Origin: an uncultured Candidatus Bathyarchaeia archaeon
Lineage (GTDB): Archaea; Thermoproteota; Bathyarchaeia; RBG-16-48-13; GCA-020345945
Length of the DNA stretch: 64,000 nucleotides
Reading direction: 5' to 3'
Assembly (NCBI GenBank): GCA_964596985.1
Contig: CAZQWG010000001.1
Location: forward strand, 396,977-460,976
This document shows positions 50,982 through 62,813 of this stretch, one piece after another. The number at the start of each line of letters is the position of its first letter. Position 1 is the first letter of the stretch. The notes under the pieces were generated by a model. The model did no database searches. It saw nothing but the letters and a program-made list of their open reading frames with translations, and had not been told where the DNA came from. The translations under genes were made by a program, and so were the position numbers.

Positions 50982-51076
50982 TGGCGGGCCCGAAGGGATT
51001 CGAACCCCCGACTTCAGGCTCCGAAGGCTTTCGCGGTGATAAACCACTGCGCCCTATCCGACTAGGCTACGGGCCC
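50982..51076 (-). tRNA. tRNA-Arg(UCG) with one 18-nt intron at non-canonical position ~29/30; CCA encoded
   Basis: Manual fold: acceptor GGGCCCG/CGGGCCC and T-arm GGGGG-TTCGAAT-CCCTT. After removing TGGTTTATCACCGCGAAA, the anticodon arm is CAGGC-CTTCGGA-GCCTG. Confidence 0.75.
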
Positions 51077-51276
51077 AACAGGTCCGTGAAATAGATAACC
51101 GATTAAAGAAGCTTCCTATAAATCCCTCCAAGAGAGAGTGAAGTCGCGGTCAAGGCGAAGGAGAAACGGGAACCCGTGGAAGGCTAGAAAGATACATATT
51201 CTTATGAGGACATCTTATGACGACATAAAGACAACACTCTTACATTTTCATGATATTAAGAGAGAAGGAAAAACAG

Positions 51277-52020
51277 ATGAGTTCTCAAACACACCTCCAC
51301 GATCTCAAGTTCAGGATGATGACCATCGATCTTCTCAGGATGGCGAAGGAACGATACACCTACCGAGAACTAGCCCAACACACAGACCTCCCAGTGACGG
51401 TCTTAAGCAGATACGTGAAAGGCCACGTATTACCGACAACGAACAGGGCTAAGAGCATATGGAACTCGTTGGAGAAACTCGTAAGCCTAGAGAACGAGTT
51501 CAGAAATAGGATAACCTTCGACGACTCCGGCTATTTTGATAATACAAGCATCGTCTGCAACATATCCCTCCTCTCGCAAGGAGCCCAACACGCCCTCTCG
51601 AAATTTGCCGGCCGTAGAATAACCAAGGTGATTACCGCGGCGGTGGACGGCGTTCCTCTGGCTACAATGATCGCAGAGGCTTTCGGGGTCAACCTGGTAC
51701 TGGCGAAGAACACGAAGGAGGTTGGAATCCACGACTTCATCGAGGAGAGCTACATCCCAAGCGGCTCAGCGGTAAGGATGGTATTGTACATACCGAAGAA
51801 AGCGATCAAGAGGGGAGACAGCGTCCTGATAGTCGACGACGTCATCAGGTCGGGAGAGACCCAGAGGGCGTTGATCAACCTAGTCGGAAAAGCCCGGGCT
51901 GAGGTAGCAGGAATCTACGCGCTGGTTGGAGTAGGGAAGAATTGGAGAGAGAAGATACCCACCCCATCCAACTGTCCTTGTGAAGTAATCCTGACCCTGC
52001 CATTGAAGAACGGGGAATAG
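51277..52020 (+). CDS. HTH + phosphoribosyltransferase-domain regulator (GfcR/PyrE-like)
   Basis: N-terminal HTH (YTYRELAQHTDLPVTVLSRYVKG) and the PRTase motif VLIVDDVIRSGET. The start is taken at ATG 51277. Confidence 0.65.
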   Translation: MSSQTHLHDLKFRMMTIDLLRMAKERYTYRELAQHTDLPVTVLSRYVKGHVLPTTNRAKSIWNSLEKLVSLENEFRNRITFDDSGYFDNTSIVCNISLLSQGAQHALSKFAGRRITKVITAAVDGVPLATMIAEAFGVNLVLAKNTKEVGIHDFIEESYIPSGSAVRMVLYIPKKAIKRGDSVLIVDDVIRSGETQRALINLVGKARAEVAGIYALVGVGKNWREKIPTPSNCPCEVILTLPLKNGE

Positions 52021-52062
52021 GCGGCCGAGAGCAGAGAAGCCAGATCCTTTGATATTCGATCT

Positions 52063-53103
52063 TCAACGTCTGGAAAACAGTCTACCTAGACTTCTCCCGA
52101 AAGGCGGGAATACTACATCGCTCTCCGTCACTATTGCAGTCACATACTGGGGCGGCGTAACATCGAAGGCAGGATTCAACGCAGGTATACCCGTAGGCGC
52201 GGTACGTATCCCGTGGAAGCCGAGAACCTCCACCTCGTCCCTCAACTCTATCTCGACATCCTTCGACTCGGTCTTCAGATCGACCGTGGAGAGCGGGGAA
52301 GCAACATAGAAAGGGATCCTATGGATGCTTGAGAGAACTGCAATCGTGTAGGTTCCAATCTTGTTGATTACAGAGCCGTCTCCAAGAACCCGGTCAGCGC
52401 CTACGATCACCTTGTCCACCATCCCCTCTGCCAACACGTATCCAACGGCGCTGTCAACAATCAGGGTGACAGGAATCCCAGCCCTCTGAAGCTCGAAGGT
52501 TGTCAACCTCGCCCCCTGTAACCTGGGTCTCGTCTCGGTTGCAATCACCCGCACCCTCTTCCCAGACTCAGCCGCCGCCTTCACGATCCCGAGCGCAGTC
52601 CCGTAGCCCACAGTGCCAAACCCCCCTGCGTTGCAGTGTGTGAGAACCGCGTCACCATCATCAAGTAGGGAAGCCCCGTTCCTACCTATCGCCAAGTTCA
52701 CTTGCAGATCTTCCTCAGCCAACCTCAGTGCGGCATCAAGCGTCATCTTCTTCAGCGTCTCGACGGTCCCCTTACCGCCTCGAACCGTGTCCAAGACACG
52801 GTCGATCGCCCAAAAAAGGTTCACAGCGGTCGGCCTAGTCGATCTCAGCCGATGCGCCGAAAGTTCCAAGTCACCTAAGAGCTCTTTCTTGGAGACCGCT
52901 TTGGAGGATAAGGCTGTAAGAGCAAGACCGAAGGCGGCAGCAACGCCTATGACCGGGGCTCCACGGATCTTCATGTTCTGAATTGCTTCGGCGATCTGGC
53001 TGGAACCCCGAAGCCTGAGCTCGACGAGCTCATGGGGAAGCCTTGACTGATCGTAGGTGACGACGACACCGTCCTCCCATCTTATCGTCCGGAAAACACT
53101 CAT
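52063..53103 (-). CDS. mtnA: methylthioribose-1-phosphate isomerase / eIF-2B alpha-beta-delta family
   Basis: N-terminal DQSRLPHE, IRGAPVIG, THCNAG, the ETRP motif and GADRV. Confidence 0.85.
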   Translation of the reverse strand: MSVFRTIRWEDGVVVTYDQSRLPHELVELRLRGSSQIAEAIQNMKIRGAPVIGVAAAFGLALTALSSKAVSKKELLGDLELSAHRLRSTRPTAVNLFWAIDRVLDTVRGGKGTVETLKKMTLDAALRLAEEDLQVNLAIGRNGASLLDDGDAVLTHCNAGGFGTVGYGTALGIVKAAAESGKRVRVIATETRPRLQGARLTTFELQRAGIPVTLIVDSAVGYVLAEGMVDKVIVGADRVLGDGSVINKIGTYTIAVLSSIHRIPFYVASPLSTVDLKTESKDVEIELRDEVEVLGFHGIRTAPTGIPALNPAFDVTPPQYVTAIVTESDVVFPPFGRSLGRLFSRR

Positions 53104-53654
53104 TCCCCCACTTCCAAGAATGCGGAAAGGATATCCTGTGAGAGATCCCGGGCAGTCTTAGCCAGTTCAGGAGTCATCTCCATCCCTAACCCAATATTCT
53201 TCGGTTGAACGCCGAGGAAAAGAACCTTAGCGCCGATCCCCGAGGTAATGTACTCGGAGAGAATCGACAGGGACAAGGCGTGTGTACTGGAGGCTGATTC
53301 AAGAATAGACTCCGAGTTGACAACACGTGTCTCGCCAGGATCCAAGCCCATCTCTGCAGCATCGATTATCAGGACGTGGCTAGGAGCCATCCTCCTAAGA
53401 GGACCGGTGAAACTCTCGGGCACGGTCTCGCAGTCGAAGAGCTCCACGTAACTTGGCACCCGCCCCTTCAAGCGATCAACTATGACCGAGCCGACAGCGT
53501 CATCTCCCCTAATCCGGCTGCCCACACCCAGCACGGCGATCTTTGTGGCCCCTCGAAGCCATCTCCTCAATTCCGGAAACACAGTCAACTCAGACTTGAG
53601 TTCTACACTACACGAATATGAAAGTGTTGGATAGGGAATGCTTATCCCCAACAC
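53100..53654 (-). CDS. hydrogenase maturation endopeptidase (HycI/HyaD family)
   Basis: IAVLGVGSRIRGDDAVG and the downstream IIDA motif. The true start is probably internal. There is a 4-nt overlap with mtnA. Confidence 0.6.
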   Translation of the reverse strand: MLGISIPYPTLSYSCSVELKSELTVFPELRRWLRGATKIAVLGVGSRIRGDDAVGSVIVDRLKGRVPSYVELFDCETVPESFTGPLRRMAPSHVLIIDAAEMGLDPGETRVVNSESILESASSTHALSLSILSEYITSGIGAKVLFLGVQPKNIGLGMEMTPELAKTARDLSQDILSAFLEVGE

Positions 53655-53736
53655 GAATCACCGGCGACGATAGCCGAAACCTACATAAAGAGAAGACATT
53701 TGGCAATAGGTTGAACCCCAAGAGGAGACATGTACA

Positions 53737-54270
53737 TTGCAGAGAGAGATAATAGAAGCCAGATACCAAGAAGACAAAGTCAACGTCTATGAGGAAGACG
53801 CCGTCAGCTTTCTCAACGAGAGGGGATACGGAGAACTCGACAAGGAAAGCCACGTTCTCACCCTAACCCCTTACGAGGTCCTATACCTTGCCCTAGACAA
53901 GAAGCTGAAGGTACTGGATTCTGACGCAGAGTCGCAACTGGGCTCCCCTGAACTCCTTGAAAAGTTCCGTCTGAAGGACCCAGAGATATGGACGAGATAC
54001 CTAGTATACCGAGACCTCAGAGACAGGGGATACGTCTTGAGAGAAGGCTTCGGGTTTGGAGTAGACTTCAGGGTATACGACAGAGGGGAATACGGGAAGA
54101 AAGCCGCCAAGTACATAGTCTTCGGAATAAACGAGGGAGGCCCTATCCCAATCAGCAGGATAGCTCAACTCTTGAACCAAGTGAAGAGCTTGAAGAGAGA
54201 ACTGATCCTAGCCGTCATAGACAGGAGAGGCGAGGTCGTCTACTACTCCGTCTTCCAAATGGTGCCATAG
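53737..54270 (+). CDS. endA: tRNA-splicing endonuclease, catalytic-type subunit (177 aa)
   Basis: YLVYRDLRDRGYVLREGFGFGVDFRVY and the C-terminal catalytic domain pattern. Confidence 0.85.
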   Translation: MQREIIEARYQEDKVNVYEEDAVSFLNERGYGELDKESHVLTLTPYEVLYLALDKKLKVLDSDAESQLGSPELLEKFRLKDPEIWTRYLVYRDLRDRGYVLREGFGFGVDFRVYDRGEYGKKAAKYIVFGINEGGPIPISRIAQLLNQVKSLKRELILAVIDRRGEVVYYSVFQMVP

Positions 54271-54272
54271 AC

Positions 54273-55127
54273 ATGAGGAAACTCTGGGGTTTCTTTGCTA
54301 TTATCAGACCAGTCAACTCCTTAATGATGGGGCTTAGCGTCCTGATAGGACAGCTGATAGCCGAGAACAGCATCCCGGTTCTCTCGACCGCTTTCCTAGG
54401 CTTCACGACAGCCTTCTCGTTCACGGCTGCAGCGATGGTGATCAACGACTACTACGATCGCGACATCGACGCGATAAATGAGCCGCAGAGACCAATCCCA
54501 AGCGGATTAATATCCCCAAATGAGGCCTTGGTCTACGCAGTCCTCCTAGAGATAGTCGGTCTTGCAGCCGCGGCCTTCACCAACCTCACCTGTCTGCTCA
54601 TAACCATCACTACGATAGTACTGTCGATCCTATACACCACAAAGGGCAAAGAGACCGGGCTTCCAGGAAACCTCATGGTCAGCGCATGCGTCTCAATGCC
54701 TTTCGTCTACGCGGGTTACCTCGTAGGAAGAGAGCCGAGTCAGCTTCTCTGGACCTTCGGATTCATGGCGTTCCTAGCAAACACTGGACGCGAAATAACC
54801 AAAGGAATAGTCGACATAGAAGGGGATAGAACCCGAAACGTTAGGACAATAGCCGTGAGCTCCGGACCCGAAAAAGCAGCATTCTCAGCTGCCCTATTCT
54901 ATCTCTCCTCAGTAGTCCTGAGTGCACTACCGGTATGGAACGGAGAGGTTTCAGCATACTACCTTCCCGTGGTTGCAATAACCGATATCGGTTTGATAGA
55001 ATCATCCTTATCACTGATCAGAAAACCGGGCAGGGAAAACGCTAGAAGAGTGAAACAACGGGTGTTAGTCTACATGCTAGTCGGAATGATAGCTTTCCTA
55101 GCAGGCAACCTTCCTGGAGAGCGATGA
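54273..55127 (+). CDS. UbiA-family prenyltransferase, digeranylgeranylglyceryl phosphate synthase-like
   Basis: NDYYDRDIDAINEPQRPIPSG and a second Asp-rich motif. It is polytopic. The start is taken at ATG 54273. Confidence 0.8.
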   Translation: MRKLWGFFAIIRPVNSLMMGLSVLIGQLIAENSIPVLSTAFLGFTTAFSFTAAAMVINDYYDRDIDAINEPQRPIPSGLISPNEALVYAVLLEIVGLAAAAFTNLTCLLITITTIVLSILYTTKGKETGLPGNLMVSACVSMPFVYAGYLVGREPSQLLWTFGFMAFLANTGREITKGIVDIEGDRTRNVRTIAVSSGPEKAAFSAALFYLSSVVLSALPVWNGEVSAYYLPVVAITDIGLIESSLSLIRKPGRENARRVKQRVLVYMLVGMIAFLAGNLPGER

Positions 55128-55128
55128 T

Positions 55129-56415
55129 ATGCCCGGATTTCAGACCCTAAGGGGAATGAGAGACTTCCTGCCAGAAGACCTCAGGAAAAGGAGACAAGTG
55201 GAGGATACGATTCGACGGCTCTTCACCCTCTACGGCTATGAGGAGATCGAAACCCCAACCGTCGAGTCAATGCAACTATTGACCGCAAAGGCAGGAGACG
55301 AGATAAGACACAGAATGTACGCCTTCAGAGACCTAGGCGACAGAGAGGTCGCTCTAAGACCCGAGATGACCGCCTCGGTTGCAAGGATGGTCGTAAACAA
55401 CCTGAGATACTCAACGAAACCGTTGAGACTAGGCTACGTATCCAACTGCTTCCGCTACGACGAACCACAAAAGGGAAGGTATAGAGAATTCTGGCAGGGA
55501 GGATACGAGCTGTTCGGGTCCTCTAGACCAGAGGCCGACGTAGAGATACTCACCATCGCCAACCAGCTAATGGGGGCTCTAGGCTTCAACAGGTATGAGA
55601 TGAAAGTAGGTCACGTGGGAATACTCAGAGGAGTCTTGGAACAGGAAGGAATCGGCGAACAAACCCAAAATAAAACTGTAGCCTTTATGGATAAGGGTGA
55701 ATACGACAATGCAATAGCCCTACTGGAACAGAATAGAATCCCAAGCGAGTGCATCGAAGTATCCAGAGAACTATTCGAAGTGAAAACAGACTCCATCACA
55801 GAGGCATTAGAAGAGGGAAGGAAGCTGCTTGAGAACTATGGGAAAGCGCTTCAATCCCTCGACAACCTAGGAAGCATCATCAGGATCTTAACAGATAGCG
55901 GATTGGATATCCCTCTGACAGTCGACCTTGGTTTCGGAAGAGGGCTGGAATACTACACAGGAATGGTCTTCGAGGTTTTTGTACCGGACCTTGATGTAGC
56001 CTTAAACGGTGGCGGCAGATACGACCGACTGATAGAAACATTCGGGGGAGAACCTACCCCTGCAGTGGGATGCGCACCTGGAATCGATCGGATCGTCCTC
56101 GCCATGGAGAAGGAGAACCTCTTCAAGAAAGAAGAGGAAACCCCCAAGATTCTAATAGTAGCCCTAGAGGACAGGCTTCACAGCAGAGCGTTGGAAGTCG
56201 CACAGAGACTAAGAAACAGAGGTTACCGTACAGAAGTCGAAGTAACGGGTAGAAAGCTGAGGAAAGCACTCTCGTTCGCGTCCAACGCGAAACACACCCA
56301 TACAGTAATAATCGGACAGAGAGAACTGTCGAGAGGTCTAGTCATCGTTAGAAATATGGCGAGAAATGAGCAGACAGAAGTCAAGATAGATGCCATCCAA
56401 GATCAAATAGTGTGA
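55129..56415 (+). CDS. hisS: histidine--tRNA ligase
   Basis: Class II motifs: RGMRDFLP, ALRPEMT, FRYDEPQKGRYREF and GGGRYD. Confidence 0.9.
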   Translation: MPGFQTLRGMRDFLPEDLRKRRQVEDTIRRLFTLYGYEEIETPTVESMQLLTAKAGDEIRHRMYAFRDLGDREVALRPEMTASVARMVVNNLRYSTKPLRLGYVSNCFRYDEPQKGRYREFWQGGYELFGSSRPEADVEILTIANQLMGALGFNRYEMKVGHVGILRGVLEQEGIGEQTQNKTVAFMDKGEYDNAIALLEQNRIPSECIEVSRELFEVKTDSITEALEEGRKLLENYGKALQSLDNLGSIIRILTDSGLDIPLTVDLGFGRGLEYYTGMVFEVFVPDLDVALNGGGRYDRLIETFGGEPTPAVGCAPGIDRIVLAMEKENLFKKEEETPKILIVALEDRLHSRALEVAQRLRNRGYRTEVEVTGRKLRKALSFASNAKHTHTVIIGQRELSRGLVIVRNMARNEQTEVKIDAIQDQIV

Positions 56416-56467
56416 AAGCCGACCTTCGTCGACCAGGACGACACCCCAAGAGAGTACGCCTTTGAGG

Positions 56468-56579
56468 TGGCGGGCCCGGTGGGATTTGAACCCACGACCT
56501 ACGACTCTCACCACGGGTTTAGGAGGCCGCCGCTTTGGATGGGCTGTACACCCCTCTATCCAGGCTGAGCCACGGGCCC
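56468..56579 (-). tRNA. tRNA-Arg(CCU) with two introns (about 21 nt in the D-arm 3' strand, 13 nt at canonical 37/38); CCA encoded
   Basis: Manual fold: acceptor GGGCCCG/CGGGCCC, T-arm GTGGG-TTCAAAT-CCCAC and anticodon arm GCGGC-CTCCTAA-GTCGT. D stem GCTC..GAGC is restored only after removing GGGTGTACAGCCCATCCAAAG. Confidence 0.8.
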
Positions 56580-56671
56580 GGTCTATACGTAGACCTATTA
56601 CATCTCCTCAAGGTCCCTATAATAAAAGTGTGGAAGACTTATCAGTGGAGAGAACATCTGCAAGATAGGTC

Positions 56672-56829
56672 GCGGGGGTTACCGAGTTAGGTCAAAGAAA
56701 ACCCCTATGGGACGAGGGGTTTGTGAAAGTGCAGGACTTAAGAACCCTATACCAAGGACCGAGTCTGGGCCAGATTGAGAGATCCTGTGGCGTAGGCCTT
56801 CGCGGGTTCGAGTCCCGCCCCCCGCACCA
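56672..56829 (+). tRNA. tRNA-Leu(UAA) with two introns (31 nt in the D-arm, 39 nt at 37/38); CCA encoded
   Basis: Acceptor GCGGGGG/CCCCCGC, anticodon arm CAGGA-CTTAAGA-TCCTG, long variable arm TGGCGTAGGCCTTC and T-arm GCGGG-TTCGAGT-CCCGC. The D-arm intron is 56698-56728 and the canonical intron 56743-56781. Confidence 0.85.
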
Positions 56830-56831
56830 TT

Positions 56832-57170
56832 TTACCCAGTAAGGCAGTTCGCGAGGTGTGGTTGAAGCACCGCCATGCCGGCCTTCATAGCCTCAGCAGC
56901 CATCAACAGCTCAGCAAGGAATACCTCGAACCTCCCGTACTTCTCGCCGATCCCCCTAATCGTCCCTATCAGCGCCCTACTGGCTTCGATCGGATCGACA
57001 CTTCCTCCATACACTCTTTCATCGCTTCCTCGACTCGGTCGGCTTCGTACGTGTCCAGCCCCCCACAGTTTCTCAAGGGGATTCATCCACTTCCTCACCT
57101 TGGCAATATCTAGCGTGCTGCAACCTTGAATATTGAGCAACGACACCGCACAGACAGCCGAGCCTCTCAA
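56832..57170 (-). pseudogene. fragment of a corrinoid-protein gene (N-terminal cap domain only), ending 3 nt from tRNA-Leu
   Basis: GEKYGRFEVFLAELLMAAEAMKAGMAVLQPHL parallels GELYDSKEYFLMELTLAGNTAAEIMDMIKPEL of 24074..24730. There is no DxHxxG Rossmann domain. Confidence 0.35.
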
Positions 57171-57189
57171 GCATCCAACAGGAGTCGGG

Positions 57190-58383
57190 CTACTTCGATC
57201 TCATACGATAAGCCAGGGAGAACGAGATCACAGCCATGCAGACTAGATGGACGAACACAAAGGCATAGAAGCCGATTCCGCCGACAAGCCAGGTCCACCC
57301 GAACCTAGGTCTGTACCGATGGTAATGGAAGAAAACCGGGAACTCAAGGTACACAGACACCTGGAGAAGCCAGTAGGGGACCCAGTATCTTCTCCTCCAG
57401 ATCTGCATCAGAAGAAACGGAGTAAACCAGGCAATGAATTGGGGGGAGAAGACCTTCGAGAAGAAAATCAGGTTCATCAAGGAGATTGCACAGCACGCCA
57501 GCAGATCCTCTCTTCGACGGCAAGGCAGTAAGAGAACAAGAGCGTAACCAAGGATTTGAAGTGCCCAGAATACTGTGAGTTCGATATCAGCCATCGGATT
57601 ACCCCACAATACCACTGAAAGCAAGCCGGGTAGACTCTGAGGTGTCTGCCTCCTAGAGAGATGATACCCGTAAGCCCCCCTGAAGAAAGAGTGGGCGTCC
57701 ACAGCCAAGAATGGAAATGTATACAAGAAACATAGGGCAACCGCGCCTGCCGCTAATGCGGCGATTGACCTGTGGCCCCGATCGTTCTTGTGCAAGAACT
57801 TTACAAACAGCGGGAGGAGAACGATGGGATACCATTTGAACATAGCCCCTGCACCGAGAAGTAGACCAGCAGAGAGACCCATCCCCCGGAACAGCAGAAA
57901 GGCCGCCAACACGGTGAGAAACGTGGGAATACAATCGTACCGACTCATCCAGGTGTAGAGAATCATAGGACTCAGATTGTATGCGAACGCGCAAGTCAGC
58001 GCCTTCCTTCTCCCGAGCAATTCTCTTCCCATCCTGAATATGAGAAGAGAAGTCAAGAGCTCTAGGGGAAGCTGCACAAGATTCAACATCAACGCAAAAA
58101 CATTCTCCTCACGGCCTGTGACGAGTGAGATCAGGATGAACAGGTAGCTTGCAGCCTGAGGGTACTCGATCGGCATGACGACATACGGGAGACGGGAAGG
58201 AGCGTCTTTTGCAATCTCGAAATACTTGTCGATATCACCGAAACTGCGAATGGCAAAGTTGAAGTCGTGAAAGAGGAAGAGCTGCCCACCACGGAGAAGA
58301 GCGAGACCCAAGAAGAACAAGCGGATCATGAGGGCGCATGCCAGGATACGGGTCTCGTCACCAAACTCTTTGATCGAAGGCAA
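57190..58383 (-). CDS. polytopic membrane glycosyltransferase-like protein (GT-C / DUF2029-like)
   Basis: 397 aa with about 10 TM segments. The assignment rests on architecture only. Confidence 0.5.
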   Translation of the reverse strand: MPSIKEFGDETRILACALMIRLFFLGLALLRGGQLFLFHDFNFAIRSFGDIDKYFEIAKDAPSRLPYVVMPIEYPQAASYLFILISLVTGREENVFALMLNLVQLPLELLTSLLIFRMGRELLGRRKALTCAFAYNLSPMILYTWMSRYDCIPTFLTVLAAFLLFRGMGLSAGLLLGAGAMFKWYPIVLLPLFVKFLHKNDRGHRSIAALAAGAVALCFLYTFPFLAVDAHSFFRGAYGYHLSRRQTPQSLPGLLSVVLWGNPMADIELTVFWALQILGYALVLLLPCRRREDLLACCAISLMNLIFFSKVFSPQFIAWFTPFLLMQIWRRRYWVPYWLLQVSVYLEFPVFFHYHRYRPRFGWTWLVGGIGFYAFVFVHLVCMAVISFSLAYRMRSK

Positions 58384-58528
58384 CCGATTCTCAACTACTG
58401 CAAGAGGACTCGAATAGGATAGCTGTATCGTACTTGCTTACGGGATTGTATACCACACACTACTGCCACCTCATTGCATAGAAAAGATTTATTTTAGGTT
58501 CACGGACAGCTGATACTGCCTCGGCAAT

Positions 58529-58664
58529 GCCTCGGTTCCGTGGAAAAACGGCGAGACAGCTCAGACTGGCCAAACACACGCGTTGGGTCAAAGCGCGACC
58601 TTGGTAAGGTCGAGATCGCGGGTTCGAAACGCCGAGAAGCGCGAACATCCCGCCCGAGGCTCCA
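58529..58664 (+). tRNA. tRNA-Thr(GGU) with three non-canonical introns (after pos 8, D-loop, T-loop) and none at 37/38; CCA encoded
   Basis: Acceptor GCCTCGG/CCGAGGC, uninterrupted anticodon arm CGACC-TTGGTAA-GGTCG, and T-arm GCGGG-TTCGA[19 nt]AT-CCCGC. Introns are about 58537-58557, 58570-58586 and 58628-58646. Confidence 0.75.
58628..58646 (+). repeat. T-loop intron copy 1 (AACGCCGAGAAGCGCGAAC) in tRNA-Thr(GGU)
   Basis: Identical 19-mer at the same T-loop position in three tRNA genes. Confidence 0.8.
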
Positions 58665-58779
58665 CACAAATGACCTCCAGACAAGGCTATGCTTCTTAAG
58701 TAAATGTGAAGATACTAATAACAAAGTCAAACGACGATATACCTCGAAGAGAAGGTATTCCGATCTCGAGGAGATACGG

Positions 58780-59505
58780 GTGCTACAAGTAACAACCCTC
58801 CAAGACCTAGTTGATTTCTTACCCTGGTTCGTTGCAGCTTGTTCCTTGGTGGCGTTGGCATTCATCGTATTCCAATCCTTTCCTCCAACAACTGCACGAA
58901 GAGTTGAGAAGCCCAAACCGAGTCTGAAGCCCCACGTGCAGACCCCTTTAAGGAATACGATAAGCGACCTGAAACTTGAAGAGGCACAAAAAGAGTTGAA
59001 TACGCTACGCATAGAGAGGGACATAGTCAGCTACGCCCTGACAACACTGTTCGAGGCTGAGGCTCAAGGAAAAATAACCGACAGGGAAAGGGACCGACTG
59101 ATCCAGAAGTACAAGGAAGACATGAGGCAGCTAGAGAAGGATATCGAAGAGAAAGAACTGGTCGTCAACCTCCACAAACTGGAAGGTATGCAGACAAACC
59201 TCCTTGAGATGTTCCAGAAACGGTTCGACGAGGTAAGCAGCCGAATAGAAGAGGTCAGATCCAGGCTTAAACTGGAAACCGAGCCCCCCCAGGGGACTCT
59301 CGTCGAGAAGCCGGGAGTGGAAGCAGAGGAAGAAGAAACAGAGCCTGATACTACAGGATTTGATACTACGGAATCCCCGGTAGAAGAAAAGCTCAAAGAG
59401 ATTCAAGAAGAAGTGATGAGGGAACTAGAGAGGCTGAAGCAGATGGAGGCTGAAGAAGGATACGATGAATTGGATCAACACGATGAAGAAGAAGGTAGCG
59501 ATTGA
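58780..59505 (+). CDS. membrane-anchored coiled-coil protein with acidic C-terminus
   Basis: The listed ORF 58540.. overlaps the tRNA. A plausible start is GTG 58780 (GGAG upstream). One TM (FLPWFVAACSLVALAFIVF) is followed by a heptad-rich region. Confidence 0.4.
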   Translation: MLQVTTLQDLVDFLPWFVAACSLVALAFIVFQSFPPTTARRVEKPKPSLKPHVQTPLRNTISDLKLEEAQKELNTLRIERDIVSYALTTLFEAEAQGKITDRERDRLIQKYKEDMRQLEKDIEEKELVVNLHKLEGMQTNLLEMFQKRFDEVSSRIEEVRSRLKLETEPPQGTLVEKPGVEAEEEETEPDTTGFDTTESPVEEKLKEIQEEVMRELERLKQMEAEEGYDELDQHDEEEGSD

Positions 59506-60157
59506 AGCAGTTCAAGAGGTCAAGAACGGATCCATTGTCGGTCTTGGAAGCGGGAGTACCGTAGCGTACGTCATCGAAGAGCTGGGCCGTAGGGTCAAAG
59601 AAGAAGAATTGGAGATCCAAGGCATCCCAACCTCCTACGAGACGATGAAACTCGCGGTACAATACGGCGTACCCCTCACAACCCTCAACGAACATCCAAA
59701 ACCAGACATGGACATAGACGGAGCAGACCAAGTCAACGGAGAACTCAACCTAGTAAAAGGTCTGGGAGGAGCCCTGACAAGAGAAAAGATCGTAGGCAAG
59801 GCGTCGAAGAGGCTCATAATAGTAGTCGACGAGAGAAAATTAACCGACAGACTAGGCGCCGACCAGGTCGTACCGATAGAGGTCATACCGATCGCCACGA
59901 CGGTCGTGACGAACGCACTACGTTCGTTCAACGGGAAAAGCACCCTCAGAAGAATAGGGAACGACGACCTCCAATTCATCACAGACAACGGAAACTTCAT
60001 ACTGGACGTAGACTTCGGGATCATAGAAAACCCGAGAGAACTAGAGAGAAAGCTACAAACCGTAACAGGCATCGTAGAGAACGGACTATTCCTAGACATG
60101 ACCCATAAAGTCTACGTGGGACACAAAGACGGTACAGTCAAGACCCTACACAAGTAA
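59483..60157 (+). CDS. rpiA: ribose-5-phosphate isomerase A
   Basis: GLGSGSTV, DGADQV and KGLGGALTREK. Confidence 0.85.
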   Translation: MKKKVAIEAVQEVKNGSIVGLGSGSTVAYVIEELGRRVKEEELEIQGIPTSYETMKLAVQYGVPLTTLNEHPKPDMDIDGADQVNGELNLVKGLGGALTREKIVGKASKRLIIVVDERKLTDRLGADQVVPIEVIPIATTVVTNALRSFNGKSTLRRIGNDDLQFITDNGNFILDVDFGIIENPRELERKLQTVTGIVENGLFLDMTHKVYVGHKDGTVKTLHK

Positions 60158-60240
60158 GAAGCAGAGGGAGCCGTTGACCTCCCGAGAGAACCGATTCTCC
60201 AGAAGACTTTAAAGAGAAGGTAAGAATTCAACAAGAATAT

Positions 60241-60403
60241 GCCGAGGAAAACTGGTGCCAGAACTCAGCAGAAATGCTGAGACCACTAAGGGGTAGCTCA
60301 GTCTGGTCATGAGCGCCGGACTCATAAGGGAATGAACCGCCTGGAGAAATCCGGAGATCCCGGGTTCGAAACGCCGAGAAGCGCGAACATCCCGGCCTCG
60401 GCA
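60241..60403 (+). tRNA. tRNA-Met/Ile2(CAU), elongator-type, with three introns (46 nt between acceptor stem and pos 8, 22 nt at 37/38, 19 nt in the T-loop)
   Basis: Acceptor GCCGAGG/CCTCGGC, D-arm GCTC..GAGC, anticodon arm CCGGA-CTCATAA-TCCGG and T-arm CCGGG-TTCGA[19]AT-CCCGG. Introns are 60248-60293, 60327-60348 and 60370-60388. CCA is not encoded. Confidence 0.8.
60370..60388 (+). repeat. T-loop intron copy 2 in tRNA-Met(CAU)
   Basis: Identical 19-mer AACGCCGAGAAGCGCGAAC. Confidence 0.8.
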
Positions 60404-60464
60404 TCCTATTCCACGCATCCTACAAACATCTTTTAAGATCCCGCCAAGTTTCAGAGATAGCACT

Positions 60465-60582
60465 GCCTCGGTGGCTCAGCTGGCAGAGCGATAGCCTTGT
60501 ACCCGACTATGAAATGGTCGGTAGGAGAGCTATTGGTCGCGGGTTCGAAACGCCGAGAAGCGCGAACATCCCGCCCGAGGCT
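60465..60582 (+). tRNA. tRNA-Thr(UGU) with two introns (26 nt at 37/38, 19 nt in the T-loop)
   Basis: Acceptor GCCTCGG/CCGAGGC, D-arm GCTC-AGCTGGCA-GAGC and anticodon arm ATAGC-CTTGTAA-GCTAT after removing 60502-60527. The T-loop intron is 60549-60567. Confidence 0.85.
60549..60567 (+). repeat. T-loop intron copy 3 in tRNA-Thr(UGU)
   Basis: Identical 19-mer AACGCCGAGAAGCGCGAAC. Confidence 0.8.
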
Positions 60583-60692
60583 CCTCTTCTTGAAGAACCG
60601 ATGCTGAGAGGCAAAAGCCTGAAGAACAAGGGAGAAAAGAAAACCTAGATATTCGAGCGAAACCCAGCTAGATAGCTGATCTTCACAGAATT

Positions 60693-60784
60693 GGGGTCGT
60701 CGGCTAGCATGGTCTAGGCTATGTGGCTTGGGCCCACGTGACCGGAGAACCTCGAACGGAGTTCAAATCTCCGCGACCCCACCA
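60693..60784 (+). tRNA. tRNA-Pro(UGG) with one 14-nt intron at the variable-loop/T-stem junction; CCA encoded
   Basis: Acceptor GGGGTCG/CGACCCC, anticodon arm TGTGG-CTTGGGC-CCACG and T-arm CGGAG-TTCAAAT-CTCCG. An extra CGGAGAACCTCGAA (60743-60756) duplicates the T-stem 5' strand. Confidence 0.8.
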
Positions 60785-60883
60785 CACAAAGAGATACAAC
60801 ATGTACGGGTACTCGAAACAAAAAGTTTTACAATTCGAAAATCCTTAGGGCATCAAGTACCGCCAGTGTTTGCGGCATCACAT

Positions 60884-60958
60884 GCCAGGATGGCTGAGCG
60901 GATAAGCGAGCGGCTGCAGACCGCTTACACGCAGGTTCAAATCCTGCTCCTGGCTCCA
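60884..60958 (+). tRNA. tRNA-Cys(GCA), intron-less; CCA encoded
   Basis: Standard 75-nt cloverleaf: GCCAGGA..AGCGG-CTGCAGA-CCGCT..GCAGG-TTCAAAT-CCTGC-TCCTGGC-T-CCA. Confidence 0.9.
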
Positions 60959-61029
60959 AGTCACTCACTCAGGTTTACAGAGGGTCACTTGAGATCAACC
61001 TAGCTCGGAAGTCGAGCATCCGTTCAGGT

Positions 61030-61320
61030 TCATACTAGGTTCATTTCACGAAAAGCCTTGACGAGTGTCTTTACATTTCTTGCCTCAAGATTCAGCGCGT
61101 ATAGAGAGATTTCACCGTAGAGCACCTTCTCCACTAGTTTTTCTTCAACAAGTATCCCAATGTTCCTGTTGATCGTTGACCTCCCAAGACCGCTTTGTCT
61201 ACCTATTTTGTAGATTGTAAGTGGCGTCGAGGATCTAGCCAATGTAAGCAGAATCTTTAACCTAGCCCGGTTGCCGAGTGCCTCTATTAGTCTCTCTTTG
61301 CTATCACGGTTTCTGGTCAA
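61030..61320 (-). CDS. ArsR-like winged-helix transcriptional regulator
   Basis: RLKILLTLARSSTPLTIYKIGRQSGLGRSTINRNIGILVEEKLV. Confidence 0.6.
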   Translation of the reverse strand: MTRNRDSKERLIEALGNRARLKILLTLARSSTPLTIYKIGRQSGLGRSTINRNIGILVEEKLVEKVLYGEISLYALNLEARNVKTLVKAFREMNLV

Positions 61321-61326
61321 GACTGA

Positions 61327-62490
61327 TCAAGGCTTCCTTAGATGATCCACGAGGACTCTTTCAAGAACATCAACCTTTATTCCGGGTAGACCAAGTTCTT
61401 CTGTGTTTTCTCCGGGGGCATCGACGATCACGGCATCCCTCAGCCTTCCGACGAATCCTTGAAATGAGACCTCCCCAACAGGTTCGAAACGATACTCCTC
61501 TGAAAGAGCAGCGTACATCTGATACACATTCGTTATTGGCACATAGACAGATTCCTTCTCCTTCTTCAATTCTCTCGCCAAGGCAAGTAGAATATGTTTC
61601 TCTGTTGGGGAGAAGGCGTATATTTCCTCAGTACGTGACTTAGGATCGACCCAGGATTGTGCTTCTCTGACAGCATCAGGCATCACATATGGTGAGCCCT
61701 CGCGTTCAGCTACAAGACCAGCCATGGTAAGCAATTCAAGGGCGTATCTCGCATCCCCACGTCCGTATTCACAGACATTCCGCACGATGAAGCCGAGTAT
61801 CTCGGAGGGGACTGCGTTCTCTCTGAATGCTTCGTCGATTCTTGCGCCGAGGATATCTCTGATCTCATGTTCCTTGTACAACGGGAACTCGACTGTCGTC
61901 TTTACAAAGGTGCTGAGTGTTGAGGAGTCGAATAGGTTCCGGAAAGAATAGTCTCTTGCTATGAGGATCAGGTGAATGCGTTGAGGAACGTCCTGTACCG
62001 AGTCTGCCAAACGCGTCAGATTGTACACTATGTCTTCTCCAGTAGATCTAATGAAGTAGTCGATCTCGTCAAGAACGAGAAGAAGATATCTATCCTTCTT
62101 GTTCAAGTAGTCCCGGAGACCTCTCAGCAACTCATCTGACCCGTACCCTCTAAGGGGCAACTCAGGCGCTGCTTTACGAATTAGGGCCTGAACTAGACTG
62201 AACCCACTAGGAGTCATCCTGCAATTCAGGTACACGAATTCAAGTTGGATTTCATTCTTCTCTGCAATCCTCTTCAGAATAGCGCCGACTCGCTTGGCGG
62301 TAACAGTCTTACCTGCACCACTTTCCCCAACGAGAAGGATCTTCCTCGACAGGACCGCCGGGGTTCTGAATGCAACCTGGAAGAACCCCACAAGCCTTTG
62401 AACGTGGTCTTCTCGATGTGGAAGACGCCTCGGGACATAACTGTAGGAGAGCTTCTCGATACCGTCCTCCCTGAATATTCTACTAGGCAC
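61327..62490 (-). CDS. cdc6: Orc1/Cdc6 replication initiator (AAA+ with C-terminal winged helix)
   Basis: YVPRRLPHRE, Walker A GESGAGKT, Walker B LVLDEID, and a C-terminal wHTH. Confidence 0.9.
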   Translation of the reverse strand: MPSRIFREDGIEKLSYSYVPRRLPHREDHVQRLVGFFQVAFRTPAVLSRKILLVGESGAGKTVTAKRVGAILKRIAEKNEIQLEFVYLNCRMTPSGFSLVQALIRKAAPELPLRGYGSDELLRGLRDYLNKKDRYLLLVLDEIDYFIRSTGEDIVYNLTRLADSVQDVPQRIHLILIARDYSFRNLFDSSTLSTFVKTTVEFPLYKEHEIRDILGARIDEAFRENAVPSEILGFIVRNVCEYGRGDARYALELLTMAGLVAEREGSPYVMPDAVREAQSWVDPKSRTEEIYAFSPTEKHILLALARELKKEKESVYVPITNVYQMYAALSEEYRFEPVGEVSFQGFVGRLRDAVIVDAPGENTEELGLPGIKVDVLERVLVDHLRKP

Positions 62491-62608
62491 TTTGCATCAC
62501 CCTATCCTGAGAGAGCCTGTGAAAAGAATTTTACTCACAGACGGGAAAAAGTGGTTGAGTGACGTGAAACTCTATATAGTGCTCAGCAGGAATATGTTTA
62601 GGTCTGAT

Positions 62609-62813
62609 GGGGGCGTAGTCTAGAGAAGAGGCGAACCCTTCTTCGGAGAACTAGGTATGACAACGGGCTCCAGAGGTCCGTGAAGAGCCATAATACGGGT
62701 ATGCTGACCAGATGGGATGAAGAACTTCCGGAGCGCGAAGAAACCCGTAGGTCGAGAACCGATAGGTTATCGACATGTCGGTCGATAGGGTTCAAGTCCC
62801 TTCGCCCCCACCA
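62609..62813 (+). tRNA. tRNA-Trp(CCA) with three introns (about 27 nt in the D-loop, 69 nt at 37/38, 32 nt in the T-stem); CCA encoded
   Basis: Acceptor GGGGGCG/CGCCCCC, anticodon arm ACGGG-CTCCAGA-CCCGT after removing 62674-62742, and T-arm GAGGG-TTCAAGT-CCCTT after removing 62755-62786. Confidence 0.8.
62674..62742 (+). ncRNA. C/D-box guide RNA embedded in the tRNA-Trp canonical intron
   Basis: C-like GTGAAGA (62680-86), D' CTGA (62704-07), C'-like ATGAAGA (62717-23) and a degenerate D (CGAA/GCGA, 62735-39). The guides are complementary to tRNA positions 38-44 and 31-37. Confidence 0.6.

Follow-up and report, generated by a model that had tools for sequence, protein, structure and literature searches.

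The 64-kb stretch of DNA analysed here (the window) belongs to an uncultured Candidatus Bathyarchaeia archaeon, known from a 31-contig metagenome-assembled genome (MAG; G000) that is 98.5% complete with 5.3% estimated contamination, and its positions 50982–62813 carry nine tRNA loci, eight of them interrupted. Every candidate tRNA locus sits between protein genes. With the unspliced DNA, ARAGORN reports three tRNA genes in the window (the Arg-UCG locus being miscalled Ile-UAU), and Rfam at its gathering thresholds reports tRNA-Cys alone (58.4 bits); permissive Rfam settings add tRNA-Pro (40.4 bits, with a 15-nt insertion) and fragments of less than 21 bits at 50993, 56468, 56672 and 62609, and in all seven of the nine loci miss the Rfam threshold. 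When 17 insertions totalling 454 nt are set by coordinates, cut out by script and the spliced sequences given to ARAGORN, it returns canonical cloverleafs for all nine loci (three of nine unspliced), with the anticodons Arg-UCG, Arg-CCU, Leu-UAA, Thr-GGU, Met-CAU, Thr-UGU, Pro-UGG, Cys-GCA and Trp-CCA and, in the same gene order, 1, 2, 2, 3, 3, 2, 1, 0 and 3 insertions. Five of these are at the canonical position 37/38 and 12 elsewhere. A sequence-only reading of the window had proposed about 17 introns in nine tRNA genes, mostly at non-canonical sites, with canonical stems restored only by excision; our counts agree with it gene by gene, and ARAGORN assigns exactly the anticodons it gave. The assembly contains no second gene for any of the nine anticodons, and TATA-like boxes can be read directly from the sequence about 25–30 nt upstream of the first exons.

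Orthologs were found by DNA searches over 60–120 species genomes of the class Bathyarchaeia followed by intron-tolerant alignment, which beyond the genus did better than a synteny route (searching round RpiA gave one useful locus). Comparison loci and genomes are given below as L and G numbers, respectively; G073, an intron-poor Bathyarchaeia genome with 43 Rfam tRNAs, served as the reference for compact tRNAs, and the nearest named relative, L004, is from another uncultured Candidatus Bathyarchaeia archaeon MAG, whose RpiA is 72% identical and whose gene order is the same. Each boundary was also scored for a bulge-helix-bulge motif (BHB), in which four exon nucleotides pair with four intron nucleotides (the central helix, H), both strands contain a 3-nt bulge, cut after the second base of the bulge, and the whole is flanked by an outer and an inner helix (h, h'). 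A boundary was taken as BHB-like when H had at least three of its four pairs and h and h' together at least three, either as two 3-nt bulges set apart by a 4-bp helix (hBHBh') or in the relaxed forms HBh' and hBH; boundaries displaced by 3–15 nt were the null.

The two arginine genes lie on the minus strand. The tRNA-Arg(UCG) gene (50982–51076, CCA encoded) has one 18-nt intron at 29/30 (51029–51046; BHB-like, H 3/4, h 3, h' 3), and its spliced form is collinear with the compact Arg-UCG of G073 save for one nucleotide (a single gap) in the D-loop. The tRNA-Arg(CCU) gene (56468–56579) has a 21-nt intron in the D-stem at 22/23 (56535–56555; H 4/4, h 1, h' 3) and a 13-nt intron at the canonical 37/38 (56507–56519; H 3/4, h 5, h' 2). 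Its ortholog L110 is uninterrupted, and L098, L100 and L101 have only the D-arm intron, at the same site, and a contiguous anticodon loop, intron 2 being missing from all four; the spliced gene aligns without gaps to its G073 counterpart (L152, 69 of 78 positions identical). On the plus strand, as are all the tRNA genes that follow, the tRNA-Leu(UAA) gene (56672–56829) has a 31-nt D-stem intron at 23/24 (56698–56728; H 3/4, h 1, h' 8) and a 39-nt intron at the canonical 37/38 with a strict BHB (56743–56781; H 4/4, h 7, h' 1). Spliced, it too aligns gap-free with G073 (L183, 73 of 88 identical). Its orthologs have one to three introns at other sites; the site of intron 1 is occupied in the order-level relatives L107, L112, L113 and L117 and empty in L098 and L099, and intron 2 is missing in L114, L115 and L122.

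The tRNA-Thr(GGU) gene (58529–58664, CCA encoded) has three introns: 21 nt at 8/9 (58537–58557; strict BHB, H 4/4, h 2, h' 4), 18 nt in the D-loop at about 20/21 (58574–58591; H 4/4, h 1, h' 2 in the register adopted here, whereas 58570–58587, the alternative, gives a product with one base different) and 19 nt in the T-loop at 59/60 (58629–58647; strict BHB, H 4/4, h 5, h' 3). Five uninterrupted 75-nt orthologs were found (L128, L130, L131, L132 and L134), and the spliced gene aligns gap-free with L172 of G073. The 5' acceptor heptamer GCCTCGG of this gene occurs twice, 4 nt apart (58518–58535), a duplication that is kept in L004 with another spacer, and the TATA-like box is positioned for a start near the first copy. 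The elongator tRNA-Met(CAU) gene (60241–60403) has a 46-nt insertion (60248–60293) whose register is ambiguous between 3/4 and 7/8, a 22-nt intron at the canonical 37/38 that is freely variable in sequence between relatives (60327–60348; H 3/4, h 5, h' 3) and a 19-nt T-loop intron at 59/60 with a strict BHB (60371–60389). The tRNA-Thr(UGU) gene (60465–60582) has a 26-nt intron at the canonical 37/38 (60502–60527; strict BHB, H 4/4, h 7, h' 8) and a 19-nt T-loop intron at 59/60, again with a strict BHB (60550–60568); its spliced form is gap-free against L142 of G073 (64 of 76 identical), and its orthologs L047 and L064 are without the T-loop intron.

The tRNA-Pro(UGG) gene (60693–60784, CCA encoded) has one 14-nt intron, given here in the 53/54 register (60748–60761; hBH type, H 3/4, h 3, h' 0); owing to a direct CGGAG repeat, registers back to 60743–60756 (48/49) leave the same product. 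The sequence-only reading had warned that splice boundaries would be ambiguous at flanking repeats, and this is so both here and at the GAGG and GGGG flanks of the first Met insertion. The tRNA-Pro(CGG) gene of the same genome (G000:C2:76043-76137) also has an intron at 53/54, of 16 nt. The tRNA-Cys(GCA) gene (60884–60958), recognized by both Rfam and ARAGORN, has no intron. Finally, the tRNA-Trp(CCA) gene (62609–62813, CCA encoded) has introns of 27 nt in the D-loop at 15/16 (62624–62650; H 3/4, h 2, h' 7), 69 nt at the canonical 37/38 (62674–62742; H 3/4, h 5, h' 1) and 32 nt in the T-stem at 51/52 (62757–62788; an HBh' motif, H 4/4, h 0, h' 7). G004 and G005 have the same three introns, and other families have one to five at other sites. 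In the sister species a 5S rRNA gene (L004 14263–14417) lies about 600 nt downstream of tRNA-Trp.

Over the class as a whole, the 3' two-thirds of Trp intron 2 is the best-conserved part of its locus and has BLAST matches in 59 of 121 genomes, mostly at intron positions. Conserved within it are a CTGA box after ACGGGT, which is complementary to tRNA positions 38–43, and, further on, a GATGAAGA-like box followed by a stretch complementary to positions 31–37. Such an arrangement would suit a C/D-type guide directing 2'-O-methylation at positions 39 and 34, of the kind known in Euryarchaeota; the terminal C and D boxes of this C/D-box-like intron are poor or absent.

The strongest support for these exon-intron maps is collinearity with uninterrupted genes, a motif-free kind of evidence that outweighs the motif scores. 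For Pro, Arg-CCU and Thr-GGU there are uninterrupted orthologs, and for Leu, Met, Thr-UGU and Trp other families have intron-free sites. The sister species add a second layer. L004 holds the Thr-GGU, Met, Thr-UGU, Pro, Cys and Trp genes with near-identical exons and diverged introns, and the same is true of Arg-CCU and Leu-UAA in the same-genus genome G005 (L097, on another contig). Changes in stems and in BHB helices between these species are compensated: in Trp of L004 a U11 to C11 change goes with a matching one at position 24 and another in the intron strand to which position 11 pairs within the BHB, the central helix of Thr-GGU intron 2 stays paired through GU/GC changes, and variation in the Pro-UGG intron is confined to its loop part. 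The motif scores agree with this picture, in that 16 of the 17 boundaries have a BHB-like or relaxed motif versus 1.8% of displaced boundaries. Six of them are strict, namely Thr-GGU 8/9, Thr-UGU 37/38, Leu 37/38 and the three T-loop introns. A strict BHB scan was also tried as a de novo predictor and dropped; shuffled loci yield 2.1 weak hits each, and motif strength is therefore informative only at boundaries defined by other means.

The genome has the enzymes that such introns would require. It encodes two EndA paralogs of about 180 aa (PF01974), a 185-aa open reading frame on contig C10 and a 177-aa one on C1; a third PF01974 match is below threshold and has a stop codon. The C10 protein, the catalytic alpha subunit (located at G000:C10:30283-30525), matches the alpha subunit of the Aeropyrum pernix (alpha-beta)2 enzyme over 172 residues (E = 8e-42) as well as the heterotetramer alpha subunits of S. 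tokodaii and P. aerophilum (E down to 8e-42 across the set), and in alignment with 3P1Z_B and 2CV8 it retains the catalytic Tyr, His and Lys positions. In the Crenarchaea-specific loop its K40 and K42 align with A. pernix K44 and R46, and K44 of that loop confers cutting at non-standard positions (PMC3241643). In the paralog in the window (53737–54270, plus strand; PF01974 and PF02778), alignment with 1A79 and the C10 protein shows Ala in place of the catalytic His and Arg in place of the catalytic Lys. Its matches are to the N-terminal, non-catalytic half of EndA models with two units and, weakly, to "subunit beta" models, so it should be a beta-like structural partner and not the catalytic subunit. 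A gene for the ligase RtcB is also present. The genome thus appears to encode a crenarchaeal-type two-subunit (alpha-beta)2 EndA, for which heterotetramer assembly and cutting of relaxed motifs are predicted; the broad-specificity endonuclease that the sequence-only reading took to be implied is supported by the loop-bearing alpha subunit on C10 and the beta-like copy in the window.

We consider it very probable that the nine loci are functional, single-copy tRNA genes, eight of which would be transcribed as precursors with one to three introns of 13–69 nt. In the precursor each intron and its flanking exon would fold into a BHB or a relaxed (HBh', hBH) motif, the (alpha-beta)2 endonuclease would cut both bulges, with the specificity loop of its catalytic subunit allowing cuts outside the anticodon loop, and RtcB would join the exons into ordinary tRNAs of 72–88 nt. 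Maps, motifs, ortholog collinearity and the key residues of the enzymes are all directly visible in the genomes compared; cleavage and ligation at the predicted sites in the cell are what we infer from them. Several points weigh against this explanation. The maps derive from DNA and splicing is predicted from them, a search of sequencing runs having listed none of RNA; ten of the motifs are relaxed, lacking one of the four central pairs or having a flanking helix that is short or absent; and some boundaries were picked among a few equivalent registers by means of the same motif, which makes the motif test partly circular. The nominal P of 1e-27 is too small because some registers were chosen by the motif being counted, and by our own arithmetic P is still about 1e-11 when ten alternatives are allowed per intron. 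Lastly, no BHB can be fitted to the first Met insertion, whichever register between 3/4 and 7/8 is taken and with bulges of 2–4 nt.

The BHB/EndA mechanism proposed here does not cover this 46-nt insertion. The interrupted gene is the sole copy of elongator tRNA-Met in the genome, the other CAU genes looking like initiator and Ile2-type tRNAs. According to the register, the 5' strand of the mature tRNA would read GCCGAGG or GCCGGGG, two forms that are seen in relatives, and in the orthologs L065, L045, L055 and L059 the acceptor 5' strand is contiguous with U8. In the 7/8 register the motif score is H 2/4, h 0, h' 1. A pattern search with the flanks alone found four more copies of the gene on metagenome contigs, one of them the same as L004 across the gene, making five distinct sequences in all (two of the six metagenome pattern matches, L186 and L187, fell by chance on other tRNA genes that lack the insertion and were discarded). 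The mean pairwise identity of the five is 93% in the insertion, 98–100% in the exons, and 68% and 77% in the other two introns. Two helices can be folded in the insertion, TGGYG/CRCTA and a 7-bp hairpin capped by a GAAA loop. They are 100% paired in all five, two of the pairs being compensatory, and neither the internal loop (CCAGAA/AC) nor the GAAA loop varies; the flanking A-run and G-run co-vary (AAAAC/AGGGG in the window, AAAAA/GGGGG in L004). As evidence the folding pattern is modest, coming from five close sequences, and 30 of 500 shuffles reach the observed score. Rfam with permissive filters gave no family for the insertion. By inspection, its splice sites do not pair with the splice sites of introns 2 and 3 or with the 3' trailer, and it has no convincing K-turn, C/D-box or H/ACA boxes. 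About 27 nt upstream of the GCCGAGG heptamer lies a TATA-like box, in keeping with a transcription start at exon 1.

It is possible, although we think it the less probable case, that this insertion is not an ordinary EndA intron at all, and that it is removed independently of a BHB, is recognized through its own hairpin (perhaps with a protein partner) or functions as a small RNA; that it is kept as an extra arm is the least likely variant. Such ideas are favored by the missing motif, by conservation near the exon level and far above that of the neighboring introns in five sequences from separate assemblies, and by the fully paired helices, invariant loops and co-varying flanks. On the other hand, with only five close relatives the conservation may partly reflect a short divergence time (yet the other two introns did diverge), broad-specificity EndA enzymes cut very relaxed motifs, and no Rfam family matches the insertion. 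An alternative pathway for tRNA introns is not known from archaea. Two other routes were considered and set aside: an internal BHB-like motif (i=29, j=49) would leave 27 extra nt, and an RNase P cut before the GGGG run with 3'-5' repair is speculation that leaves the perfectly conserved upstream heptamer unexplained. More specifically, and with a probability that we put somewhat lower again, the genus may have evolved, in its only elongator tRNA-Met, a conserved and structured insertion between acceptor strand and U8 that BHB recognition cannot process. If so, either the splicing machinery of archaea would have a new recognition mode or the tRNA gene would contain a functional RNA, and in any case this conserved, BHB-less insertion is a concrete substrate with which to explore the limits of EndA recognition.

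Simpler, intron-free structures are a very unlikely explanation for some of the loci, for example a tRNA-Pro with an enlarged variable region and a class-II-like tRNA-Ile(UAU) at the Arg-UCG locus. Rfam does align the whole Pro gene, with 15 nt as an insertion in the variable region, and ARAGORN does call the other locus Ile-UAU without an intron. However, the uninterrupted Pro ortholog L040 aligns with the spliced prediction at 75 of 75 positions, and relatives (L038, L039 and L047) have unrelated introns of 16–18 nt at the same site with a BHB-type helix, while the Ile-UAU reading requires a 22-nt variable arm and a 4-bp anticodon stem, sets aside the collinearity of spliced Arg-UCG with its compact G073 counterpart and would leave the assembly without an Arg-UCG gene. 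Still less likely is it that the loci are decaying pseudogenes or assembly chimeras, as the fragmentation and estimated contamination of the bin and the low Rfam scores of seven loci might suggest, given that the same interrupted genes occur in the same order in independent assemblies (G005/L004, G004 and four metagenome contigs) with conserved exons, intact stems, compensatory changes and no alternative copies in the genome. The sequence-only reading had named simpler covariance-model structures and pseudogenes as the findings that would overturn it; the comparative results (orthologs, compensated changes and the lack of second copies) exclude both, and chimeras with them.

The orthologs provide a natural series for tRNA intron gain and loss, with 0–5 introns inside one class. 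The upper end is reached by tRNA-Trp, of which six genes, from several families, have five introns each (L073, L074, L076, L083, L092 and L094, in G061, G109, G075, G100, G097 and G031), at about 10/11 or 16/17, 29/30, 37/38, 45/46 and 56–58; most have a BHB-like 4/4 central helix, and ARAGORN calls these genes tRNA-Trp once the introns are cut out. Introns are also shared between genes. The 19-nt T-loop introns of Thr-GGU, Met and Thr-UGU in the window are identical, and the two Thr genes have an identical 48-nt 3' half, intron included; in L004 the two Thr copies are identical to each other and differ from those of the window at four positions. The pattern suggests concerted evolution or gene conversion and not just an old transposition. 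Near-identical introns in different tRNA species are what characterizes intron transposition of the Thermoproteales type (Fujishima 2010), and they are present here, where gene conversion could also explain them, in a host that belongs to the Bathyarchaeia and not to the order Thermoproteales.

At the Rfam threshold the source genome has 19 tRNAs, versus 43 in G073, which is of similar completeness. In a census of 106 high-quality Bathyarchaeia genomes, in which at most 37 candidates per genome were scored, Rfam-detectable tRNAs range from 7 to at least 38 per genome (high counts being lower bounds), with counts that cluster by family; as a measure of intron load this is no more than a proxy, and the source genome scores 16 under these filters. 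Spliced alignment of the 43 compact G073 tRNAs to the source genome passed 14 loci, the reference family being too distant for a census by this means. Automatic annotation would thus miss most tRNA genes of the source genome, and tRNA-based measures of MAG quality and inferences from codon usage would be misled by the Rfam undercount. Elsewhere in the genome, G000:C7:59232-59401 (minus strand) looks like the 3' half of a CAU tRNA, with anticodon arm, T-arm, CGGCCGC acceptor strand and CCA; the 60 nt upstream hold no matching 5' acceptor strand, and the gene may be split, permuted or heavily interrupted. ARAGORN with introns allowed also reports a tRNA-Pyl(CTA) with a 291-nt intron (G000:C4:39517-39895) and a tRNA-Gln with a 2405-nt intron (G000:C13:8302-10798), both probably false calls.

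Multiple-intron tRNA genes are reportedly known from the Thermoproteales through the work of Sugahara in 2007 and 2008 and of Fujishima in 2010. The genes described here are an instance of this known archaeal phenomenon in a lineage for which we found no published description, our search of the open-access literature having returned no paper on tRNA introns in Bathyarchaeia, and the evidence to a large extent establishes the class as a third, apparently undescribed reservoir of hyper-interrupted tRNA genes. The sequence-only reading had argued that such an intron load, known mainly from Thermoproteales and some other TACK lineages, constrains the taxonomy of the source. The source and its nearest named relative are indeed of the class Bathyarchaeia, within Thermoproteati/TACK, but the premise is outdated: some Asgard families have 2.2 intervening sequences per tRNA gene and up to five in one gene (bioRxiv 10.64898/2026.10.13.758758; PMC11291895), so intron load alone no longer points only to TACK.

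The closest parallels are with Thermoproteales such as Pyrobaculum, Thermofilum and Caldivirga, which likewise have short introns with BHB or relaxed motifs at many non-canonical positions, with a maximum of three per tRNA gene (PMC4033280), which is also the most in any gene of the window, an intron sequence that recurs across tRNA genes, as the 19-nt T-loop intron does in three genes here, and an (alpha-beta)2 EndA with a specificity loop. The differences are that the host is of another class and that one of its insertions is without a BHB. Pyrobaculum calidifontis, the richest reference genome, has 1.54 introns per gene (bioRxiv 10.64898/2026.10.13.758758) versus 1.9 in the window, a figure for nine genes and not a genome average. 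The Asgard archaea, of a different phylum, resemble the present case in that most genes are interrupted, at about two introns per gene, with many non-canonical introns in the D-arm that standard annotators miss, and their five introns in a single gene are matched by relatives of the source genome; sharing of introns between genes, found here, was not found to be general in the Asgard study. With respect to the enzyme, the source genome shares with the A. pernix (alpha-beta)2 EndA (PDB 3P1Z; PMC3241643) the catalytic triad, residues equivalent to K44 and R46 and a second, non-catalytic paralog, but in sequence the beta-like subunit in the window resembles the EndA units of Euryarchaeota (M. kandleri 5X89, M. 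jannaschii 1A79) more than it does the beta chains of Crenarchaea. The link between a loop-bearing (alpha-beta)2 EndA and scattered tRNA introns would thus extend beyond these known systems to the Bathyarchaeia, which are among the most abundant archaea of sediments.

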